Positions 5,471-19,369 of a DNA stretch of 64,000 nucleotides are shown piece by piece. The stretch is taken from IMG/VR virus record IMGVR_UViG_3300045988_159115; one strand, written 5' to 3'. Source of the stretch: a virus. The notes beneath the pieces were generated by a model, which saw only the letters and a list, made by a program, of their open reading frames with translations, did not search any database and was not told the origin of the DNA. Positions within the stretch are counted from its first letter, which is position 1. The number at the start of each line of letters is the position of its first letter. The position numbers and the translations under genes are program-made.

Positions 5471-6865
5471 ATGGATATAACAGATGCAAGAAATCAAACC
5501 TCGCACGAAGTTCAGCTGATGCTCCAGAACTATAAGAAGTGCTGCCTCGTAAAGCCTTGCAGTTTTGGTAAAACTTATATGGCAGCAGGAATTGCGTTGA
5601 TGTATCATGCGGTTGTTATCATCACGACTGCATCCGCATATCGCAATTCGATTCAGCCGAACTATCCCAATCTGGATGAGGACAAGCACGAGACGATCAA
5701 GTTCATGAGCTACTACTCTTTGGCAAGAGATCCGGAAAAGAGTCTCGGTGAGATCCATGACGCGGTGAAGAACCATACCGGAAACATGCTCGTCATCTTG
5801 GATGAAATCCATCGTGGTGGCGCGATTGGTGTTGCTGGTGCCATCTTAAAGCTGATGGAAACCTATCCGAGTGCTCATTATCTCGGTCTTACCGCAACGC
5901 CTTATCGAGCAGATGGATACGATGTCTTGAAGATGTTCTTTGACAATCATGTCATTGGAACGGAAGATGACGCTCCGATCACCGACTACTGCCCTGAGAG
6001 GCATCATTACGTCATAAGCCGCTTTAACTCAAAGCAGTTCATTGACGACTCTCCATGGAAAGAGCGCATCAATGGAAACGCGGCATCGTTCGATCACATC
6101 TATTCGAAGATTTCTCAGAAGTATTATTCTTCGAGTAATCTCGTTACCACTCTCCGTCGGTATAAAGATCTCTATCATCAGGAAAGCTACTTCAAGGTCA
6201 TTGTATTCTATCCGACGATTGAAAAGATGAAGGTGATGATCCCAAAACTCGCAAGTGCATTCGAGACTCTATATCCTGAGAGGAAGATTCGTGTCACTCA
6301 GTTCTATTACAAGAACTCTGCGAGAGTTGAGTCGTGCACGAGAGAGCCGAACACGATCGACATCATGGGCTCTATCAACATGCTTGGCATGAGCTATCAT
6401 GATGACGACGTGACTTGTGTGATCATGTTCCGGAAGACTCGTTCTAATAACGTCTATACTCAGGAGATTGGGCGAGTCATGAACTACACCTCGACGGATA
6501 AAAATACTTGCGTGTTTGACTTCGTTGAAAACTGCGATTCCACTCAGTATAAAGTTAGACGTCGTCATGACGTCGATCCAGAAACCACCTATGCTGGCGC
6601 TGTCGGTATCCAGGACGAACTCGAGAAGTTTACTGAGAAGATCGCAAAGCAGGTGACCGTTCACAATGAAGTTCTCGAAATCAAAAATGTCGTTCGTCTT
6701 CAGCAGGCTTTCTCCGATGCTAAGTATGCCAATATTCGCAGCGCAGTTGTCAATGCGTATTTGACAAAAGGAGCACCACTTGAATACTGCTGCAAGAGGT
6801 TGAATGTATCCGAGGAGTTATTCCTTGAATATATTGATCTCTATAAGAAAGCGGAAGTTGAATAA
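5471..6865 (+). CDS. SF2 (DEAD/DEAH-like) helicase/ATPase
   Basis: Walker A-like SFGKTYMAAG, DEIH box (VILDEIHRGG) and motif III-like GLTATPYR. Confidence 0.7.
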   Translation: MDITDARNQTSHEVQLMLQNYKKCCLVKPCSFGKTYMAAGIALMYHAVVIITTASAYRNSIQPNYPNLDEDKHETIKFMSYYSLARDPEKSLGEIHDAVKNHTGNMLVILDEIHRGGAIGVAGAILKLMETYPSAHYLGLTATPYRADGYDVLKMFFDNHVIGTEDDAPITDYCPERHHYVISRFNSKQFIDDSPWKERINGNAASFDHIYSKISQKYYSSSNLVTTLRRYKDLYHQESYFKVIVFYPTIEKMKVMIPKLASAFETLYPERKIRVTQFYYKNSARVESCTREPNTIDIMGSINMLGMSYHDDDVTCVIMFRKTRSNNVYTQEIGRVMNYTSTDKNTCVFDFVENCDSTQYKVRRRHDVDPETTYAGAVGIQDELEKFTEKIAKQVTVHNEVLEIKNVVRLQQAFSDAKYANIRSAVVNAYLTKGAPLEYCCKRLNVSEELFLEYIDLYKKAEVE

Positions 6866-10400: not shown

Positions 10401-11832
10401 TCATATTATCATTGATCGTATGAAGAGATCCAGAAATGTCTTTTTTCGGGATAGGACGCTTTGCAGCATTCATCGCTTTCACATCTTGGAAAGTCATATT
10501 CTCAAGAGTAATGGATTCCTGCTTCTTACGCATTTGAGCGTCACGTGCTGTACTAATAGGTTTTGACGGAACCGTGGTAGCTTGCATTACCTTATACATG
10601 CTTTCCACAAGTTCCTTATCATTATCAAGATCCATCTCAGACTTTGCCTTGATATAATCAACGGCAGCTTTACTTTCAGTAGGATCTTTTCCATTTGATA
10701 CAGCTTCGATCTCTTTTGTAGTCTCTTCGACTTTCTGATTGATCTTCTTATTGATCGTATCCTTAGCAATCTCAACTTCTGCTTTTCGAGCAATATCATT
10801 TCCGATATAAGAAGTCTTAGACCCTTGAGTATTCGTGATAGGCTTCGCTACCACAACTTTCTTTGAAGAAGTATTCTTCACCGTCACCGGGTTCTTTTTT
10901 GCCGCGGGCTCGTTCGATACTTTAATCGTCGAAGCTGCTTCAGGAGGCAACTCTTTTTGAACAACCGGCGTGGTATTATTACCAGTAAGATTATATCTAG
11001 TAGAAAGAGTAGCCTTAATAACATCTCTTTGCTCTTCATCTTTGACAGCCTTCGTATCTGATACTTCATCCCAGCGAGTAGACTTCTTAAATACACGATT
11101 CAGAGATGTTCTGAACTGTGATGCATTAACTTTCGCCATTTTACTAGGATTTACACGTAAGATATAAGAATCTGAATAAAAATAGAAATCAATATCCAGT
11201 TTCTTAAATGAAGGAACCTCATTCAGAATAGAATAATAAAATTTGAAAAGAATATTATTGATATTCTGAGTGAAATTCGTTCCAAAGTTATCAAAGAGGT
11301 CAACATCAACGAGGACAAACTTTTGCGGATACTGGGAGCACTGTTCTCCATTGATGATGCTGTAAAGGTAAGCCCAGAATAAGCTTACTTTTTTCTTTGG
11401 CTGCTGATTAATGGTACACTGGTCAAATACTTTCAGATACATTGAGAGATCAAAAAAAGTATTATAGTCGGGAGTCTTATTCAGAAGCATAGGAGGATGC
11501 TCATGAAGAGAACTACTATGAATTCTATCATAAAGATCCTTTTTTCCAGCTGCATCTCTGACATTGTAAGTTCGCCCACCAATTGTACCATGATATCGGA
11601 TGTTGTGGTACAGATAACGGTATTTACCATCTGCTGAGCAATTCTTCGTATTGGTTGCTACATGGATTACTTCAGCAGGCGTGGTAGCCATAATGAATGC
11701 AAGATTTCCATGCCCGGGTTGAAGTTTCTTCATCTTTCCAGGATGCTCTGGATCAGGAATGACAACTTCTTTCGGCAGATATGCTTTTCGAGCAACTGCA
11801 TTCATATATGGGAGAGACGTAATATATACCAT
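7474..11832 (-). CDS. phage multisubunit RNA polymerase beta-like subunit with a non-homologous N-terminal ~470 aa
   Basis: NPVVELEKDRNITAKGYRGVNVDRAYSEEKRSYDPSMIGVIGMSTSPDGNCGINRTL parallels RpoB ...ALGPGGL..ERAGFEVRDVH.sHYGR.CPIETPEG.NIGL. MAVKQSKHVIPV parallels MGANMQRQAVP. GDKVAYFTALKGIVGEIIPEGYEP parallels GDKMAGRHGNKGV.S.I.P.EDMP. Confidence 0.85.
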   Translation of the reverse strand: MVYITSLPYMNAVARKAYLPKEVVIPDPEHPGKMKKLQPGHGNLAFIMATTPAEVIHVATNTKNCSADGKYRYLYHNIRYHGTIGGRTYNVRDAAGKKDLYDRIHSSSLHEHPPMLLNKTPDYNTFFDLSMYLKVFDQCTINQQPKKKVSLFWAYLYSIINGEQCSQYPQKFVLVDVDLFDNFGTNFTQNINNILFKFYYSILNEVPSFKKLDIDFYFYSDSYILRVNPSKMAKVNASQFRTSLNRVFKKSTRWDEVSDTKAVKDEEQRDVIKATLSTRYNLTGNNTTPVVQKELPPEAASTIKVSNEPAAKKNPVTVKNTSSKKVVVAKPITNTQGSKTSYIGNDIARKAEVEIAKDTINKKINQKVEETTKEIEAVSNGKDPTESKAAVDYIKAKSEMDLDNDKELVESMYKVMQATTVPSKPISTARDAQMRKKQESITLENMTFQDVKAMNAAKRPIPKKDISGSLHTINDNMKTVKFSNINKDYIENVMPADLMNDFTCLNKKGMPFYVIDIKSEDTSDELNYKMTMKVTLEDEKHQRHVVTVDIPKFLDDKFLYLGGNKKLINKQNFLYPVVKTGPDTVQIVSNYNKIFVRRTGAKSISAVERLMKLITSNENAMKHFTVGNVYVTNKQYLTTLEYDEFSKVIRKFETPTCTIFFSQEDAQKYVEDHDLEAPKTNNGSMIFIGWRDKNKEIWINSETQSASDGESICDILVDQLPPDIRNEYLKTRNTKKVMYSTATMMSQTMPLIVYMLYWEGITSVFKKMNLKYEFSKSYPKQVKASQGVIRFKDCYMLYDADMATALLMNGMKVLDTESHDLNEYNSAEAYVDYFKKVYGKVAIMSAIGNYYEFMIDPITEEILRDIGLPTDLIELCIYANSLLVDDSYTFESSQRIARVRSSEVIPAILYYQISNAYLDYKNSGGKKKLTLPRNCVIKELMGLQTVEDYSTLNPVVELEKDRNITAKGYRGVNVDRAYSEEKRSYDPSMIGVIGMSTSPDGNCGINRTLTMEPNITSARGYVDIKENEREDLKDVNLFSPAELLYPLGNTRDDSVRIAMAVKQSKHVIPVQNASPALISNGSDEAIRFDLSTDFVVNAAEDGKVIDYDPKSKILMVEYKSGKHQAINLAPNIVKNGGGGFYLSNELVTKYKVGDSFKKDAALAWHKDFFKEDKLNGLRMNVGVLEKVAIISSYNTYNDCTVITRKLAGDAQANMTFCKSVVVGKNSNVYDMRKVGDHVHIGDPLLSYDTSFEDSDLNKLLATLSDENKELMENESKNVVRSKYAGTIVGIKIYSAVELDEMSPSLRKVVNDYYKTVKEKKGFLDKYAEEDSSIVKCGLLVNETTGKIEPNIYGVIKGQKVDDSVLIEFYIEHGDILGVGDKVAYFTALKGIVGEIIPEGYEPYSEFRPEEEVSSLIPPSSILKRQVPSILITVLGNKVIVELKRKLKEIYES

Positions 11833-11880
11833 CTATTTCGTATCTCCTTTCTTAAATTACGTAATTCTAGAGGCTTACAA

Positions 11881-11895
11881 GTTTGTTTTCAGGCC
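11881..11895 (-). promoter_or_regulatory. class I promoter-like motif GGCCTGAAAACAAAC
   Basis: Sits between terminator 11912-11946 and the SD/ATG of the beta gene (48 nt upstream); one of at least 10 similar sites. Confidence 0.5.
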
Positions 11896-11911
11896 ATATT
11901 TCTATGATCCG

Positions 11912-11946
11912 AAAAAAGGGATACCTAACTGGCTGTTAGGTCCCTT
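11912..11946 (-). terminator. rho-independent terminator after gene 11994..12524
   Basis: On the - strand: AAGGGACCTAAC-loop-GTTAGGTATCCCTT followed by TTTTTTCGG. Confidence 0.7.
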
Positions 11947-11993
11947 CTTTTGATTATGCCACGCAAGGACTATCATCCTCACTGGCAACCTCA

Positions 11994-12524
11994 TTAGAAT
12001 TTGATTTCCTCAATGCGGTACAGCTTGTACATCGAAATGTCCTGCTCATACCGCATGAGGTAGCTGACAGACTTCACATTCCGGCTGGCGACCTTAATAT
12101 TGATAATACGGTCCTTGCCATCAATGTCATCATCAATGCTAAATGCGGATTCATCAAAATCGTCATCAGCAAACCAACTGGTCATGCTGAGGAGATTAAG
12201 GAAATCCTGAACATCGTGCGGATGGAAGTACGTGACATCGTCGTACTCCATATGATTGGTATCGGTATCGCCGACCCACTGGCCGCGATACATTTGCTCA
12301 ACCTTATGGTAGCCATCCAGCTTCATAATAGGCGTCGTAAACTTAGCCCGCGGAGAATCGGTTGGGCAATTGATCGGAGTAAGAATGGTGTAACCATTGG
12401 TCTCCACGGTATCAGACTTGGAACGCGCGATATACAGCACAGTAGTTCCGCAGTCCTCAACCTTCATCAACCGAGTCTTTGCGCGGTCGTCGATGATATT
12501 TTCCGATACATAAACCTTCTTCAT
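11994..12524 (-). CDS. hypothetical protein
   Basis: ORF 11994..12566; preferred start is the ATG at 12524, which has an AAGGAG SD 6 nt upstream. Confidence 0.65.
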   Translation of the reverse strand: MKKVYVSENIIDDRAKTRLMKVEDCGTTVLYIARSKSDTVETNGYTILTPINCPTDSPRAKFTTPIMKLDGYHKVEQMYRGQWVGDTDTNHMEYDDVTYFHPHDVQDFLNLLSMTSWFADDDFDESAFSIDDDIDGKDRIINIKVASRNVKSVSYLMRYEQDISMYKLYRIEEIKF

Positions 12525-12608
12525 AATGAACTCCTTCCGATCCTTTTTATCTTGAGGATCATACAAATGATATTTGACAGAGTACTCTTCTTCCTCTATC
12601 TTCTACCT

Positions 12609-12624
12609 GTATAATATATCATTA
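12609..12624 (-). promoter_or_regulatory. exact 16-mer TATAATATATCATTAT (class II AT-rich box), copy 1 of 3
   Basis: Identical 16-mers at 20825-20840 and 21163-21178; each lies upstream of a - strand gene and after a hairpin. Orientation is uncertain because the sequence is near-palindromic. Confidence 0.45.
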
Positions 12625-12645
12625 TACTAATAGGATATACGGCCA

Positions 12646-12690
12646 TAACATCCGCATGGACAACTTACGGGAAAGCGTCCATGCGGATGT
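12646..12690 (-). terminator. 15-bp perfect hairpin downstream of nrdG (no clear U-tract)
   Basis: AACATCCGCATGGAC / GTCCATGCGGATGTT. Confidence 0.45.
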
Positions 12691-12722
12691 TACTTTGTAT
12701 AAAAAAACAAGGAGAAAGTTAA

Positions 12723-13400
12723 TCAAAGAGATTTCTGGTCAATCTCGACGATTACGTTTTTGTTAATGTAATCAACGATGTTCTGAATCTCAGCTGCATT
12801 CATCGAATTATGATTTCCACGAACGTAGCACATCACTTCATTATTGATGTAGTTATAATGGGTTTTCTTCATATCAATGATTCTCTGGTTGCTACTTCCA
12901 CAGAACTTCAAATGAAAGTCTTTCTTATCTTCTTCATACTGACCATCAACCAAATGATCTACGAAATACAGCATGCTCATAATCTGAGCTTCTTTATCAT
13001 CCGTAGTATATTTGGATCTCTGATTCAGAGATTTAAACTCCAGAAGTGCTTTAAGAATGATATCAGTAAGAGAATACCCAGTATAAAGCCAGATATCCAT
13101 TTTCTTATAGATAAGATCGGCATCTTCTTTAATATGAAGAACGAGATTTGTCAGATCGTAGATATTACACCATTCCAGAGGTTCTCCACCCAGAATGGAG
13201 AATCTATGGATATAAGGTCTATCAACGAGGGAACGGATTTTTGTTTCCGTTTCTGTGGTGTATTCTTTACCACCATTGAAATCCCATGTGACTTGATTAA
13301 AGCAATTCTTACAATGGAAGTGGCATCCTTGTGTGAAGAGGGAAACTCCAACGCCGTAGCCATTGCTAACATCCATTTCTCGAATAGATGCATATCTCAT
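12723..13400 (-). CDS. nrdG: anaerobic ribonucleotide reductase activating protein (radical SAM)
   Basis: N-terminal ...VSNGYGVGVSLFTQGCHFHCKNCFN contains the CxxxCxxC cluster; lies immediately downstream of nrdD; its SD GAGGAGAAAGAG lies inside nrdD exon 2. Confidence 0.85.
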   Translation of the reverse strand: MRYASIREMDVSNGYGVGVSLFTQGCHFHCKNCFNQVTWDFNGGKEYTTETETKIRSLVDRPYIHRFSILGGEPLEWCNIYDLTNLVLHIKEDADLIYKKMDIWLYTGYSLTDIILKALLEFKSLNQRSKYTTDDKEAQIMSMLYFVDHLVDGQYEEDKKDFHLKFCGSSNQRIIDMKKTHYNYINNEVMCYVRGNHNSMNAAEIQNIVDYINKNVIVEIDQKSL

Positions 13401-13404
13401 AAAA

Positions 13405-13514
13405 TCACTCTTTCTCCTCTACTTCTTCACCATCAGCAGCAATATCTGTCAGATGCACATAACGGTTTCTAATCTCATCGGTACGACCCTGAGACCAGAA
13501 GTGAGTTCCAATAT
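13405..13514 (-). CDS. nrdD: nrdD exon 2 (C-terminal tail following the glycyl-radical Gly)
   Basis: Encodes (Y)IGTHFWSQGRTDEIRNRYVHLTDIAADGEEVEEKE*. Joined to 13826 it gives RRTCG-Y-IGT, which parallels the canonical RRxCGYLG...GK..E...R..H. Exon lengths are 3205 + 110 = 3315 nt, which is in frame. Confidence 0.85.
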
Positions 13515-13825
13515 CCTTTATACCCTCGGTTTCCCGATATTTAAGTACGGGAGTAGACTATACCATACTTGCTTAGTGACTTCACTAAGTAGCGCCCGTA
13601 TTATAGTCGTTGAACGTCCTTCCCTAAGTGGAATAAATCCATACGAGTATTTCTACTCGCAGAAGTTTCGATGCGATGATTATCCAATCTCTAAGTCTTT
13701 TTACCATACCTGATTCTGTTAAAATCAGCCATATAGTTGTCGCCATATCTATACTTGGTAACCTAGAGCTCTAAGGAACTTCCCGCAGTTTAACAGGTTT
13801 AACGTGGACTATATTGAATAATTCA
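13515..13825 (-). ncRNA. group I self-splicing intron in nrdD (311 nt, no ORF)
   Basis: The 5' exon ends GUGGAU. The internal guide sequence CAAUAU-A-GUCCAC (13816-13804) can form P1 with the exon (U.G at the splice site) and P10 with the 3' exon AUAUUG. The intron ends in G. There is a P7-like pair GACUA (13608-13604) / UAGUC (13560-13556). Confidence 0.85.
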
Positions 13826-16800
13826 ATCCACAGGTGCGTCGAGCGACGCTCATCTTATGCTGATCACGATTGCCGCAATTCGGGCATTCCCAAACCAACT
13901 TGCCACCATCATCAACTACTTTGATTTCTCCATCGTAGCCGCAGTTCATGCAATAGTCAGACTTGATATTGAGCTCTGCATACATGATATTCTCATAGAT
14001 ACACTGCATAACTTCAAGAACTGCAGGAATATTATGAGTCAAATCAGAGCATTCAATATAACTGATAGCACCGCCCGGAGAAAGCTTCTGGAATTCAGCT
14101 TCCTGAATGAGCTTATCGAACGGATTAATCTTTTCAAAGACGGCAGTGTGATAGCTATTAGTGATATAATTACGATCTTTGCCATCAAGCTTAATAAAAA
14201 CGTCATCCCCAAAACGTTTCTTAAGGCAGCGAGCGAACTTGTAAGTGGTATTCTCAATCGGGGTACCATACAGAGAATAATCAATATGCTCTGCTGTCTT
14301 CCACTGATTGCACTTATCATTCAGAGCCTGCATGACCTTAAGGCCAAATTCTCTACCAACGCCTTTATCCATATGAGAATGGCCAGTCATATACTTGACA
14401 CACTCATACAGACCCGCATAGCCAAGCGAGATAGTAGAGTATCCATTAAACATGATATCGCCGATCTTAGCATCCATAGGAAGTCGTGCGAATGCACCAT
14501 GACGCCAAAGAATAGGAGCAACATTAACAGATGTATCCTTGATACGATCAATACGTGCACGCAATGCTCGATGGCAAAGCTCAGTACGCTCTTCAAAGAG
14601 CTGCCAGAATTTATCGTAGTCTCCACCAGAAGAGAAAGCCAGATCAGGGAGAGAAATGGTTACGACGCCACAATTAAATCTTCCATAATACTTTCCCTTG
14701 CCGGTTTTCGGATCTTTATATGGAGTAAGGAAACTGCGGCAGTTATGGCTGTAAATACCAGAAATAGTGAAATGCTCACTTCCAGTTGTTACGTCATAAG
14801 TATCTTCTTTCCGTTCAAGCATATGAGATTCTACGATATGGCACTGAAGTTTATTATTTAAACTAGCAAGATTCATTTCGTGCTTGATATAGTGATTCCG
14901 CTTTTTCTCAGACACGAGATTTTTGACAATTTCATCTGTAGCAATAAAGCAAACTTGATAACGAATGGTATCATACCGGCCAGTGCCTTTATAATGATTT
15001 TGATACATCGTAGCAGGGATGCCCAGCGACTGCGCCAGCATCATTTGCTGAATAGCAAGCTCTTTATTGGTCGATCCAATTTGGACAGCAGTGAATTTCC
15101 CATTCGAATTATTAAGGTATCCATCAGCATCAATCATGCCGCAAAGGAAACCAATGCGAGCAGATCTATTCGATGTAAAGATATCGGACGGAATATGACG
15201 GTTTAACTTAATAATTCCGCCGAATTCTTTAATCATTATATCAGCAAATTTAGGAATGGCAATTCCATCATCGGTAGCCACAGAAACGATATCTTTGTAA
15301 ATTCCTTTTCTTTCACGATTCTGATTTACTACTTTCGTGGTAATTCCATAGAATCGCTTCAGCCGCTCTTGGAGAGCTCCGATAATATCATCTTCACCCT
15401 CATTTGCTAACGAAACCGCCAGCTTTTTAATGTAAGACGAATCGCAAATCAGAATGCCAAGAAGCCAAGCCAACTCAGGATCATAATCATTATTTTCATC
15501 ACTGATATGAGATTTGATATCAACCTGAATCATGTCGTCTTCTTTTAAATCTTTTGCAAAAACGACTCCACGGTTTTCCGTTTCAAACGGATGATCCGGT
15601 GTGACATCGAGGCATCTTCCGTTATTGAACTTGATTCTCATAACGTCGCACTTCGAATTTCGAATGATTCGATAACACAGAGTCCAACCGTTCACATGAT
15701 CATAGATCATCACGTCTTTCAAATCCATGTACCAATCATTTTCACGACCGGGCTGAAGCTTTACTTCAAAGAAGGGCATGAGGCGCCACCACATTCGGCC
15801 AATTCCTTCAACGTAAGTATTCTTCATGAATTTATAGGTTACTACTTCATCACCGACCGCACATCCCATGCATGGATACACGTCGCCCTTCAGCTGTTTC
15901 ATTACTTTTGCTGAAATATAGTCAGGAACCATGCGTTTGGCCGTGCATTGTGCAGCTAAAACAGTGGTACTCCAGTACTTTGTGCCAGGTTTAATATTGT
16001 CTTCATCGAGGACATAGATGAGCTTCGGGAATGCAGGAGTAATCCATGCACCCTGCTCATTCTTCATGCCCTGAATACGCTGGCGGAGGAATTCTTCGAT
16101 GATCATGACAAGTTCGTCACGGTATTCATCAGTTTCATCAATATACATGAAGACGGTGAGGAACGGAGCCTGTCCATTGGTTGTAGACATAGAGTTCACC
16201 TGATAGATAAAAGTCTGGCAACCATCTTCGACTTCTTTACGAGTATCAAGCTCAGCAAACTTAGCTGCTTTTCGTTCATCAAAGCCCCAGCTAAGATATT
16301 TCTTCAGATAGATATTATAGGAGTCTCTCACGAACGGTGCGAGATGTGTCAGAGTGATAGATATGCCACCGTACTGGGAAGAAGTGACTGCCGTAATGAT
16401 CTGAGTAGAGATCGTGGCGGCAGTAATAAAACGATGCGGTTTGTCGATTTTGGTACCATTGATAACAGTACCATTCTGAAGCATATCATCAAGATTGCAG
16501 AGTGAGCAGTTGGTAAGAACACTCTGTGCATAATAATCCGCATCATGGAAATGAATAATTCCGGCGTCATGTGCATCCACAACTTCCTTGGGAAGCAGAA
16601 TACGCCGGGTAACATCCTTTGAAGTAATACCAGCGATATAATCACGCTGGACAGAAACGATTTCGGGGTCCTTATTGGAATTCTCTTCGTTCACTTCTTC
16701 ATTCGTGTGATTGAGAAGTTCCATAATTGCATTATCCGTGGTATTGTGAGAATCACGGACAAGAGATCTCTTAAAACGATACTCCGTATAGGCCTTCGCA

Positions 16801-17030
16801 ACATCCTTACGGTCAGTACCCATGAGATCATAAATGACGAGATCCTGAATCTCCTCTACAGACTTATCTTCAGGAATAGCAGCGATCTCATCTGCGATAT
16901 TATTCGCAATTTTGGTGGAAGAATCGGATAGTGAACCATCGACCTCAATAAATGCCCGCTGAATTGCGGATACAATTTTTGATCTGTCGAACTCCACTAC
17001 CCGGTTATCACGTTTCTTCACAGATTTCAT
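13826..17030 (-). CDS. nrdD: nrdD exon 1: anaerobic ribonucleoside-triphosphate reductase (contains an intein)
   Basis: N-terminal ATP-cone (KRDNRVVEFDRSKIVSAIQRAF); YPCMG|...|CRSFL loop; C-terminal Zn ribbon CMNCG...CPNCG; ends RRTCG at the splice site. The annotated ORF instead runs on to a stop at 13809 inside the intron. Confidence 0.9.
14742..15863 (-). mobile_element. intein with LAGLIDADG homing-endonuclease domain (374 aa) inside NrdD
   Basis: Starts CAVGDEVV after YPCMG; TxxH block (VTPDHPF); two dodecapeptide motifs (WLLGILICDSS, FLCGMIDADGY); ends IYSHN|C, followed by the extein RSFL. Confidence 0.85.
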
Positions 17031-17145
17031 TTTAGGACCATTTCCTTTCTTATAGGTTTTCTCATTTCGAAACCTTCGGTTAGCTTACTGTCGCCTAACT
17101 ATTGGATCTCAATGGTTTTTCCGATGTTTCAAATCAGCAAAATTT

Positions 17146-17160
17146 GACCTGAAAACAATA
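17146..17160 (+). promoter_or_regulatory. class I promoter-like motif GACCTGAAAACAATA
   Basis: 37 nt upstream of the ATG at 17198. Confidence 0.45.
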
Positions 17161-17197
17161 TCCTAATTATCCAAAAAATGAGAGGAGAAAGTAGTTT

Positions 17198-17410
17198 ATG
17201 AGCGTATCAAGTATGATGACTCTGAAGATGAAGATCGAAGAGTTGCGTGCACTGGAAGGCGTTCTTGGCGCTGGTGGAGTAACCACTGAGAGTTACTCTG
17301 GTAAAGTGGTCAAGAGCCTCGACGAGATTTATAAGATTCTTCAGGAGCACGATACGACAATCACCGCAATTAAGACTGCTCTTGGCTCCATCGGAATCAC
17401 AATCCCCTGA
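17198..17410 (+). CDS. small hypothetical coiled-coil protein
   Basis: 70-aa ORF; GAGAGGAGAAAG SD. Confidence 0.6.
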   Translation: MSVSSMMTLKMKIEELRALEGVLGAGGVTTESYSGKVVKSLDEIYKILQEHDTTITAIKTALGSIGITIP

Positions 17411-17417
17411 GAAAAAT

Positions 17418-17471
17418 ATAAACCAAAAGTATACGAATATAATGAATCTATAGACGATACTTTTGGTTTAT
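17418..17471 (+). terminator. 15-bp hairpin terminator candidate
   Basis: ATAAACCAAAAGTAT / ATACTTTTGGTTTAT directly after the stop at 17410. Confidence 0.55.
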
Positions 17472-17593
17472 TAGTGCCCTGGTAACACTTTGATAGCTTT
17501 TAGACCCTCCAAAATAAATAGAGTGTGTCATTAATCAAAGCGTTTCCCTAGACTTTTGCGACCCCATTGAAATTCTTAGGAGGGATTCTCAGT

Positions 17594-19369
17594 ATGGCAA
17601 GCAAGGCAACAGCAGAGAAAAAAGAACGCAAAGTTGAATATGTCAAAGTCAACGGCGTTGAGATGCGGAAAATAAAGATTAAGATGAATATGGAAGTTTT
17701 AAATTCCATTATTTCTCTTATCTATACCCCAAGTGCATTAAGAACTCGAAAAGTTCTTGATAATACATATAAGCTGTTCAATATGATTGATTTCAGGGTC
17801 TATGAAAAAAGTGATGAGTTGATGGCGCGCGTAAAACTCATTCACTATACCCTTGAAGCAAGATTTGAACGTGGAATCAGTGGACTCACAATGATCAAGC
17901 AATACGTTGCTGATCAGAACCAAGAGAACGATAATAATCCGCTGATTCCAGAAATTTTGGACAATATTCCAAAAAATATGGAGCCGCTTGATTATGAGGA
18001 TACAAAGTATCTGATTAAAAGTATTCAAGACCGTGTCCGTTATGGCTATATCGTTAATTTAAAGGAAGAGTATGATAGAATTATTGGCAGTATGACTTTT
18101 GAGAATGCAGATAGCTCTGCTTATCAAAAGAATTGCGAGCTTCTCTATGAAGTCGCTAGTAATATTGTCAATATGAAGCGCAAGACTGAAGCTCTTGATT
18201 CGAGCAATCAGACTTTCTCGCTGGATCAGGATACATTCAATAATGTCATCATTGATTCAGTGAGAAAACTTCAGGATAAGAACCGAGTGTTTAAAACTGG
18301 CATTCGGTTCTTAAATAATATCCTTGCACCAGGTTACCAGAGCAAGCGTCTTTATTGCTACTTGGCATTGCCTGGTGGTGGTAAAAGTTTGATGCTTCTG
18401 AAATCCGCTTTGGATATTAAGAAGTATAACCCGGATATTAAGCCAAAAAATCCTGGTAAGATTCCCTGTGTATTGCTGATTACGATGGAGAACGATATTG
18501 ATGAGACCGTGGAACGTATCTTCAATATGAGAGTTACCAATCGTGATATCCGTAATTACAAACCGCAGGAAGTTGCAGACCTGCTTCGTAATGAAGGTGG
18601 ACTTACATTGACCGATGAGAATAATATTGATATCGTCATTAAGTACTACCCGAACCGAAGCATTGATACAAATGATCTTCGCACGATTATCCAAGATGAA
18701 TTCGACGATGGTCGTGAGGTCATTACTTTAATCCTGGACTACTTAAAGAGAATTAGACCTGCTGAAAAAGCAGATAGTGAAAAAGAAGAGCTCAAGAATA
18801 TTACCAATGAGCTAAAGACCTTAGCAAAGGAACTTGATATTGCTGTCATTACTGCACAGCAGTTGAATCGTGCAGCAGCTTCTGTCGTTGATGCTGCTCT
18901 CCAATGCAATAAACAGGATGTTACAAAACTGGTTGGTCGTGATGGTATTGCTGGCGCTTGGGAAATCCAAGAGAACTGTGATATGACCATCATTATCAAT
19001 AAAGAAATGAAAGCAGATTCTGGTCGTAATTATATGACCTTTAAGATGCTGAAGCGTCGTTACCGTTGTAATAGTGAAGAAAAAGATCCTCGTTACGGAA
19101 TCCCGGTCCGTGATATTGATTACTTCTCACATCCGTATGATGATAATGACAACGCACTGATTGACGACATCAATATGCCTCAGGCAATCAGTGTTATTTC
19201 GCTCATGTCGTCGTTTGACGATATGCAAAGTGCAGGCGGTGCACGAACTGTCATTGATAGACCCAAAGTAAAATCAAAAAAGAAAAATTCTGAAATGGGT
19301 CAGCTCGATGATGGTAGTGGATTTGACCTTTTCAATGAAGATTCTAATGGAGACATTGGAGACTTCTAA
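17594..19369 (+). CDS. DnaB-family replicative DNA helicase
   Basis: Walker A LALPGGGKSLMLL; Walker B-like VITLILDYL; ITAQQLNRAA (DnaB H3-like motif); start ATG 17594 after TAGGAGGG. Confidence 0.75.
   Translation: MASKATAEKKERKVEYVKVNGVEMRKIKIKMNMEVLNSIISLIYTPSALRTRKVLDNTYKLFNMIDFRVYEKSDELMARVKLIHYTLEARFERGISGLTMIKQYVADQNQENDNNPLIPEILDNIPKNMEPLDYEDTKYLIKSIQDRVRYGYIVNLKEEYDRIIGSMTFENADSSAYQKNCELLYEVASNIVNMKRKTEALDSSNQTFSLDQDTFNNVIIDSVRKLQDKNRVFKTGIRFLNNILAPGYQSKRLYCYLALPGGGKSLMLLKSALDIKKYNPDIKPKNPGKIPCVLLITMENDIDETVERIFNMRVTNRDIRNYKPQEVADLLRNEGGLTLTDENNIDIVIKYYPNRSIDTNDLRTIIQDEFDDGREVITLILDYLKRIRPAEKADSEKEELKNITNELKTLAKELDIAVITAQQLNRAAASVVDAALQCNKQDVTKLVGRDGIAGAWEIQENCDMTIIINKEMKADSGRNYMTFKMLKRRYRCNSEEKDPRYGIPVRDIDYFSHPYDDNDNALIDDINMPQAISVISLMSSFDDMQSAGGARTVIDRPKVKSKKKNSEMGQLDDGSGFDLFNEDSNGDIGDF

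Follow-up and report, generated by a model that had tools for sequence, protein, structure and literature searches.

The class III ribonucleotide reductase (RNR) gene nrdD of the IMG/VR virus record IMGVR_UViG_3300045988_159115 very probably harbors a canonical class-1 intein, inserted directly before the thiyl-radical cysteine of NrdD, in which a two-motif LAGLIDADG homing endonuclease is nested. The gene lies on the minus strand of the 64,000-nucleotide (nt) stretch analyzed here (the window), as do all features of the window described below. The source virus is a gut jumbo phage; its record comprises 262,289 bp and has a CheckV completeness estimate of 100%. The intein coding sequence (14742..15863) extends for 1122 nt in frame and encodes 374 amino acids (aa), from Cys1 to Asn374. 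A second element, a group I intron of 311 nt without an open reading frame (ORF), splits the same gene at 13515..13825. Together, the nrdD intein and intron are an ordinary and well-supported example of a common kind of selfish element.

Each of the intein hallmarks that a preliminary description of this DNA had listed (Cys1, TxxH, two dodecapeptides, terminal HN and +1 Cys) could be located. Splicing block A (CAVGDEVV, 15840..15863, intein positions 1-8) provides Cys1, the N-terminal nucleophile, and block B (VTPDHPF, 15585..15605, positions 87-93) contains the TxxH residues T88 and H91. The two LAGLIDADG motifs are WLLGILICDSS (motif 1, 15435..15467, positions 133-143) with the catalytic Asp141, and FLCGMIDADGY (motif 2, 15117..15149, positions 239-249) with the catalytic Asp247. 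Blocks F and G (YDVTTGSEHF...GIYSHN, 14742..14798) end in the penultimate His373 and the terminal Asn374, and the junction reads SHN followed by Cys. The codon of this +1 Cys (14739..14741, precursor residue 764) encodes both the C-extein nucleophile and the NrdD thiyl-radical Cys. In an alignment of 124 sequences, C1, T88, H91, Y356, D357, H373 and N374 are invariant, as is G242, while W133, G136, C140 and D141 of motif 1 and D245, A246, D247 and G248 of motif 2 are conserved in at least 90% of the sequences. The +1 Cys is present in 120 out of 120 homologues inspected. Comparison with intein and LAGLIDADG profiles, which the preliminary description had proposed as a check, was made as well: in Pfam, the isolated insert matched LAGLIDADG_3 (PF14528; 51.1 bits, cut-off 22.5, residues 237-301), Hom_end (PF05204; 33.5 bits, cut-off 21.1) and Intein_splicing (PF14890; 37.6 bits, cut-off 35.8). 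TIGR01445 (intein_Nterm) matched weakly at block B (22.5, cut-off 24.5). No second intein was found in the whole phage genome.

We modeled the structure of the intein with AlphaFold2 from the alignment of 124 sequences and obtained a model with a mean pLDDT of 93.1 and a pTM of 0.93. Its best Foldseek matches in the PDB are TliVMA (E 2.8e-21, TMq 0.68), followed by PhoVMA, PI-PfuI, PI-SceI and PI-PkoII. Mini-inteins (RadA, TFIIB, PolII) match the splicing half over ~122 residues (E 1e-6 to 1e-4), and I-DmoI, I-SceI and WhiA match the endonuclease half (E 3e-6 to 4e-4 for I-DmoI and I-SceI). The model displays the tandem alpha-beta-beta-alpha-beta-beta-alpha fold expected of two-motif LAGLIDADG enzymes, with helices (H) and strands (E) arranged as H129-141, E149-153, H158-172, E175-182, E188-195 and H203-214 in the first repeat and as H233-247, E248-251, E259-264, H267-279, E284-290 and E300-307 in the second. 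A sequence search of the PDB with the insert returned the same intein families as weak matches.

The host protein is identified as a class III RNR by its equivalog profile, the sequence RRTCG-Y obtained after intron removal, the finger-loop Cys, the Cys4 site and the adjoining nrdG. It matches the NF006732 equivalog with 793 bits (cut-off 657), the best stretch being residues 2-390, and the TIGR02487 match picks up again at residue 748 of the full-length protein. The Pfam models NRDD, ATP-cone and Gly_radical flank the insert on both sides of the full protein and skip the insert itself. The C-terminal Cys4 zinc site of NrdD is present (CMNCG...CPNCG). As the preliminary description had it, a 374-aa insert at 14742-15863 separates YPCMG from CRSFL; YPCMG corresponds to residues 385-389, the insert to residues 390-763, and CRSFL starts at residue 764. 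Removal of the insert was expected to restore the conserved finger loop, and indeed it yields YPCMGCRSFLTPY, which aligns to MGCRSFL of T4 NrdD (1h78) and of 9d3x. With exon 2 added, NrdD without the insert aligns end to end with these two solved structures (E 9e-123 for 9d3x and 1.5e-110 for T4 1h78). Counting back in the T4 alignment, the +1 Cys corresponds to residue 290 of T4 NrdD, identified in established structural work on NrdD as the cysteine that bears the thiyl radical at the finger-loop tip. Because the junction Cys aligns with T4 Cys290, the +1 nucleophile of the intein is the radical cysteine of NrdD, in agreement with the role that the preliminary description had assigned to the Cys of PMGCRSFL. 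Position 580 of T4 NrdD, an Ala in the solved G580A mutant, falls opposite the Gly of RRTCG. The computed sizes are 1104 aa and 126 kDa for the precursor, 730 aa and 83.1 kDa for mature NrdD, and 374 aa and 43.0 kDa for the intein, matching the spliced product of about 730 aa and the 43-kDa intein proposed earlier.

The insertion site is found in several states among close relatives of the phage. Scanning viral contigs with the N-extein as a query yielded 41 loci. L003, L004 and L006 carry an intein 96% identical to the window copy next to N-exteins that are 96-98% identical; the intron is present in L004 and absent from L003 and L006. L005, which lacks the intron, has an N-extein 98% identical to that of the window, but its intein is only 68% identical. 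The site is empty in L007, a 259-kb contig encoding an uninterrupted 730-aa NrdD with YPPMS-CRSFL (the hyphen marks the insertion point) and lacking the intron, and also in L009, in which the intron is present; the N-exteins of both are 96-97% identical to that of the window. L008 and L041 (N-extein identity 85%) contain inteins of 332-335 aa with homologous splicing blocks, in which motif 1 is deleted and motif 2 has decayed. Elsewhere, L042 is occupied, whereas L010 and L013, with equally similar exteins, are empty. A protein-database search with the N-extein recovered the same states among clusters that are 96-98% identical: forms of 1104-1105 aa hold the full intein, forms of 1031 aa and 1062 aa hold a 332-aa decayed intein, and the empty clusters, which include P0310, P0314 and P0317, are forms of 730 aa and 696-699 aa, P0317 alone having 147 member sequences. 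A more distant protein, P0390 (about 66-72% identical), contains a 157-aa mini-intein at the same site. The insert is thus missing from L007, L009, P0310, P0314 and P0317 at 96-98% N-extein identity, which was the comparison with intein-free relatives that the preliminary description had called for. Taken together, these states make up the classical homing cycle of invasion, fixation, endonuclease decay and loss. Empty sites in the sister phages are of the WPCMG-CRSFL, YPAMG-CRSFL and YPPMS-CRSFL types. The empty allele of L007 and L009 has Ser in place of the near-invariant Gly at position -1 (L007:6150-6170). YPPMS is also found at occupied sites, in P0003, P0324 and P0325, and therefore it is not simply resistant to homing.

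The intein belongs to a populous family. Searching with the intein region produced at least 669 matches among metagenomic proteins at E <= 0.001; the NRDD domain is found in all 120 matches listed of the 669, and in 120 out of 120 inspected the intein, with a predicted length of 355-376 aa, occupies the identical xMG-C...SHN-CR(S/T/A) site. When 1.84 billion cluster representatives were scanned exhaustively with HMMER, 746 matched at E <= 0.001, of which 157 had E <= 1e-10 and 77 had E <= 1e-30. Within the sister-phage clade the intein copies are 96% and 67-69% identical to that of the window, and the nearest copy outside the clade is 56% identical. Some carriers are cellular genomes, as they reside on contigs of 0.8-1.9 Mb, and a scan of genome contigs with the intein alignment, for which the back-translated patterns were narrow, found only two loci in metagenome-assembled genomes. 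In the isolate-phage collection, the sole nrdD matching the intein is that of Eggerthella phage EL753P1 (35% identity, same site), and megablast of the locus against isolate phages revealed no close relative, only a 50-nt match inside the intron. The nearest relatives of the intein outside NrdD are inteins of class I and class II RNRs (~27% identity); in P0249 such an intein lies directly before the NPC(G/A)E thiyl cysteine and in P0268 before CNLGS. Two metagenomic NrdDs, P0170 and P0181, have two inteins each, one near residue 235-240 and the other at MG-C.

Across 3486 pairs drawn from 84 full-length proteins, the identity of the inteins shows no correlation with that of the exteins (Spearman 0.025), and in one pair the inteins are 95% identical while the exteins share 28% identity. 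This uncoupling indicates horizontal spread. Among sister phages, the ratio of nonsynonymous to synonymous substitution rates (dN/dS) is 0.04-0.10 for the intein, which indicates purifying selection, and 0.03-0.07 for the exteins. Synonymous divergence (dS) among the same phages is smallest in the intein, at 0.18-0.28, against 0.29-0.44 in the N-extein and 0.45-1.39 in the C-extein. This difference is consistent with a spread of the intein that is more recent than the divergence of the host alleles.

The remainder of the gene is arranged as follows. The ORF containing the intein (13809..17030, 1073 aa) ends in RRTCG-LNYSI followed by a stop codon. Exon 1 (13826..17030), which is covered by the ORF listing and matches Pfam ATP-cone, NRDD and Gly_radical as well as NCBIfam NF006732, encodes the ATP-cone, N-extein, intein and C-extein as far as the initial base of the Tyr codon that follows the glycyl-radical Gly; its end was placed by alignment against intron-less alleles. 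Within it, the N-extein part (15864..17030) encodes residues 1-389 with YPCMG at the end and is 96-98% identical to those of L003-L007, and the C-extein part (13826..14741) starts with CRSFL and closes with RRTCG and that one base of the Tyr codon. Exon 2 (13405..13514) completes the Tyr codon and encodes ...IGTHFWSQGRTDEIRNRYVHLTDIAADGEEVEEKE and the stop codon, and its product agrees with the C-terminus of the uninterrupted L007 and L003 proteins and with the C-terminal motif of the T4 and 9d3x NrdDs. Directly downstream of nrdD lies nrdG (12723..13400), a 225-aa ORF with CHFHCKNC encoding the activating radical-SAM enzyme; its orthologous neighbor in L003 matches Fer4_12 and Radical_SAM. 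In annotation, the 1073-aa ORF should be resolved into NrdD (730 aa), a mobile intein (43 kDa) and an intron (311 nt); it is neither a giant nor a truncated RNR.

The intron splits the Tyr codon after the glycyl-radical Gly. Aligned to L003, the window has exactly 311 extra nt, and the same exact absence is seen in L005, L006 and L007. Exon 1 ends in ...GGAU and the intron in ...AAAGG, with a terminal G; the joined exons give RRTCGYIGTHFW...EKE and a stop, in agreement with the L007 protein. In a 601-nt search, the group I intron model RF00028 matched the intron, with the typical P3/P4 and P7 core aligned, at 29.4 bits and E 1.4e-5; the gathering score is 50, and at that threshold Rfam gave no match over 11000-19000. 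The exact absence from intron-less alleles and the sub-threshold RF00028 match support the double invasion claimed in the preliminary description, which had placed an RNA-level parasite at the other radical site. All four combinations of the two elements occur among the sister phages: both are present in the window and in L004, the intein alone in L003, L005 and L006, the intron alone in L009, and neither in L007. Therefore, the intein and the intron move independently, as two separate parasites that are each gained and lost without the other.

The C-extein (13826-14741) displays a bimodal dS in comparisons with L003, L004 and L006, with values of 0.45-0.51 when the intron state is the same and 1.21-1.39 when it differs; N-extein and intein dS have no such split by intron state. 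This suggests two old 3' haplotypes exchanging via recombination or via co-conversion with the intron. Separately, 47-50 nt of the intron region (13512-13561) are 92-94% identical to terminase large-subunit genes of the Enterococcus hirae phages EH93P1, EH93P2, EH802P1 and EH802P2, which presumably carry a related group I intron core.

The following course of events can be envisaged for the element, by analogy with the chemistry established for class-1 inteins and for LAGLIDADG enzymes. After transcription of nrdD, the intron near the 3' end would be excised from the RNA, and translation would produce the 1104-aa precursor. Cys1 would undergo an N-S acyl shift, and the +1 Cys, the future radical cysteine, would attack to form a branched intermediate by trans-thioesterification. 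Cyclization of Asn374, aided by His373, would then free the 43-kDa intein, and an S-N shift would leave a normal 730-aa NrdD with YPCMG and CRSFL rejoined. The free intein, acting as an endonuclease, would cut the intein-less nrdD of co-infecting relatives at MG-C, and repair off the occupied allele would copy the intein in by homing, that is, gene conversion.

Several points weigh against an actively splicing and homing intein. The Intein_splicing match falls below the cut-off of 35.8 in the full-length protein (33.7) and in a six-frame search (31.8). That the protein splices and that it cleaves DNA is deduced from population patterns, the fold and the conservation of residues. The low intein dS could in part stem from mosaic recombination of the exteins and not from recent homing. 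Finally, the sister contigs are metagenome assemblies, and the presence or absence of an element could in principle reflect assembly choices, although each site state is backed by several independent contigs and protein clusters.

Among the alternatives, it could be argued that the intein still splices while its endonuclease is dead, leaving a fixed passenger that no longer homes and is kept because imprecise loss would destroy the catalytic loop. Decay of this kind does occur in the clade, as shown by the 332-335-aa inteins of close relatives at the same site. In the window copy, however, both LAGLIDADG motifs are intact, with D141 and D247 among the residues conserved in at least 90% of the 124 relatives; the low dN/dS extends over the whole intein, and the intein dS below that of its flanks, together with the uncoupling of intein from extein, fits ongoing transfer. 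We consider a dead endonuclease unlikely, though it deserves to be kept in mind. That the insert is instead a lineage-specific NrdD domain, or a non-splicing insertion retained in the mature enzyme, is hardly credible. It is missing both from orthologues that are 96-98% identical and from the solved NrdDs of T4 and 9d3x, in keeping with the initial view that it is not a normal NrdD domain; it has the Hint and LAGLIDADG fold, all its splice-junction residues are invariant, and 43 kDa placed before the radical Cys at the finger-loop tip would probably be incompatible with catalysis. Phage RNR genes can degenerate under repeated invasion, as in the case of Campylobacter phage nrdA (Dwivedi et al., PMC3653736), and nrdD might by extension be a decaying pseudogene inactivated by two parasites in a phage that relies on the host RNR. 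Yet the frame is open for 1073 codons and is followed by an in-frame exon 2, the extein dN/dS is low, and all catalytic motifs of NrdD and the downstream nrdG are intact, making such a pseudogene very improbable.

A different possibility is that splicing is gated by redox state. Redox traps of C-x-x-C geometry are described for other inteins, and the junction C-M-G-C places a Cys three residues ahead of Cys1, so that a disulfide between Cys(-3) of YPCMG and Cys1 would block the first splicing step under oxidizing conditions. If so, the finger loop would receive its radical Cys (+1) only when the cell is reduced and anaerobic, and the intein would be more than a parasite, namely, a regulatory switch on an oxygen-sensitive enzyme. 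Cys(-3), however, is an ordinary feature of NrdD that is not enriched in occupied alleles (22 out of 31, 71%) relative to empty ones (78 out of 89, 88%), and many homologous inteins follow SPMG, STMG or SSMG, which have no Cys at this position. We therefore regard redox gating as improbable, and a co-adapted redox trap is unsupported by the distribution of Cys(-3) in occupied versus empty alleles.

The canonical intein with its homing endonuclease, which is the reading we favor, has well-studied structural counterparts. In TliVMA and PhoVMA (7qsu, 7qst), PI-PfuI (Pfu RIR1-1, 1dq3), PI-SceI (1vde) and PI-PkoII (2cw7) the Hint domain is likewise interrupted by a two-motif LAGLIDADG endonuclease. 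These archaeal and yeast inteins share with the nrdD intein Cys1, TxxH, the terminal HN and a +1 nucleophile, and the Foldseek matches between them range from E 2.8e-21 to 4e-15 with TMq of 0.5-0.68. By contrast, sequence identity is only 13-21%, the PDB sequence matches to these chains being weak but significant, and the hosts differ (NrdD versus VMA, PolB and class II RNR). Furthermore, at 374 aa the nrdD intein is smaller than the archaeal and yeast ones (430-540 aa), and no additional DNA-recognition region is obvious in it. Much closer are the inteins of metagenomic NrdDs and of Eggerthella phage EL753P1 (OP172808.1), which have the same insertion point and a length of 355-376 aa and are 35-96% identical; unlike these allelic NrdD inteins, the window copy sits in a 262-kb jumbo phage.

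Few proteins host inteins as commonly as RNRs do (PMC4760082), and among the RNR genes of phages nrdD is split most frequently (PMC3653736). An intron and an intein within a single RNR gene were described for nrdE of the Bacillus prophage SPbeta (Lazarevic 1998; Derbyshire and Belfort 1998, 'lightning strikes twice'; as cited in PMC3653736) and for nrdA of Pectobacterium phage CB7 (PMC7344957). Those two are class I genes, whereas the host in the window is the class III nrdD; in addition, the intron in the window is without an endonuclease gene, and the intein and the intron flank the two radical residues. In T4, nrdD (sunY) has a group I intron carrying I-TevII (PMC1865063, PMC2988022), a homing endonuclease gene of a kind that the ORF-less 311-nt intron does not contain. 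The nrdD genes of gut 'Jug' jumbo phages are fragmented by group I introns and by proteins with the Intein_splicing domain, and splicing of the introns was confirmed by metatranscriptome reads (PMC12880540); the genomes of these phages are larger (360-402 kb versus 262 kb). Inteins in nrdD were also reported in Clostridium phage c-st and Lactococcus phage 949 (PMC3653736). A tblastn search of the phage collection with the window intein (E <= 1e-5) gave no match to Jug, c-st or 949. The double invasion is not unusual: the same-site intein family is abundant in metagenomes, and pairs of introns and inteins in RNR genes have been described since 1998. It involves no new mechanism and leaves current understanding unchallenged.

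What the locus does expose is a large and largely unnamed intein family, with hundreds of relatives, from phages as well as cellular contigs, that sit where class III RNRs have their thiyl radical. The intein-bearing gene of EL753P1 is annotated just as nrdD, and in NCBIfam no match to an intein-containing-NrdD model was obtained, though 'exception' models for other proteins were matched. Moreover, the sister-phage clade constitutes a natural series of the homing cycle, comprising empty, active-looking, decayed and mini forms, a replacement allele that has diverged and an intron that assorts independently, in genes whose remaining sequence is 96-98% identical.

Inserts of another type are found in related nrdD genes. 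In L011, L014 and L018 a non-intein insert separates the N-extein ORF, which stops directly behind YPCMG, from the C-extein, which starts again with the Cys codon. The inserts span L011:6177-6994 (about 819 nt), L014:6177-6462 and L018:6177-6462 (about 287 nt each). They have homologous ends, a possible U.G P1 pairing (UGGGU/GCCCA), P7-like elements (GACU/AGUC) and a terminal G, and that of L011 holds a 174-aa HNH-like ORF (6327-6851). Rfam found nothing in the inserts of L011, L014, L039 and L012, even at E <= 10 in the case of L014. From these features, read by hand, the inserts of L011, L014 and L018 are probably group I introns at the exact position of the intein. As a weaker alternative to the redox gate, MG-C may be a contested landing site for two classes of parasites, the intein and a group-I-like insert. 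A further site in the gene is seen in L039, where a 357-nt insert (L039:5850-6206) splits the N-extein between residues 286 and 287, after ...SMTTTNG.

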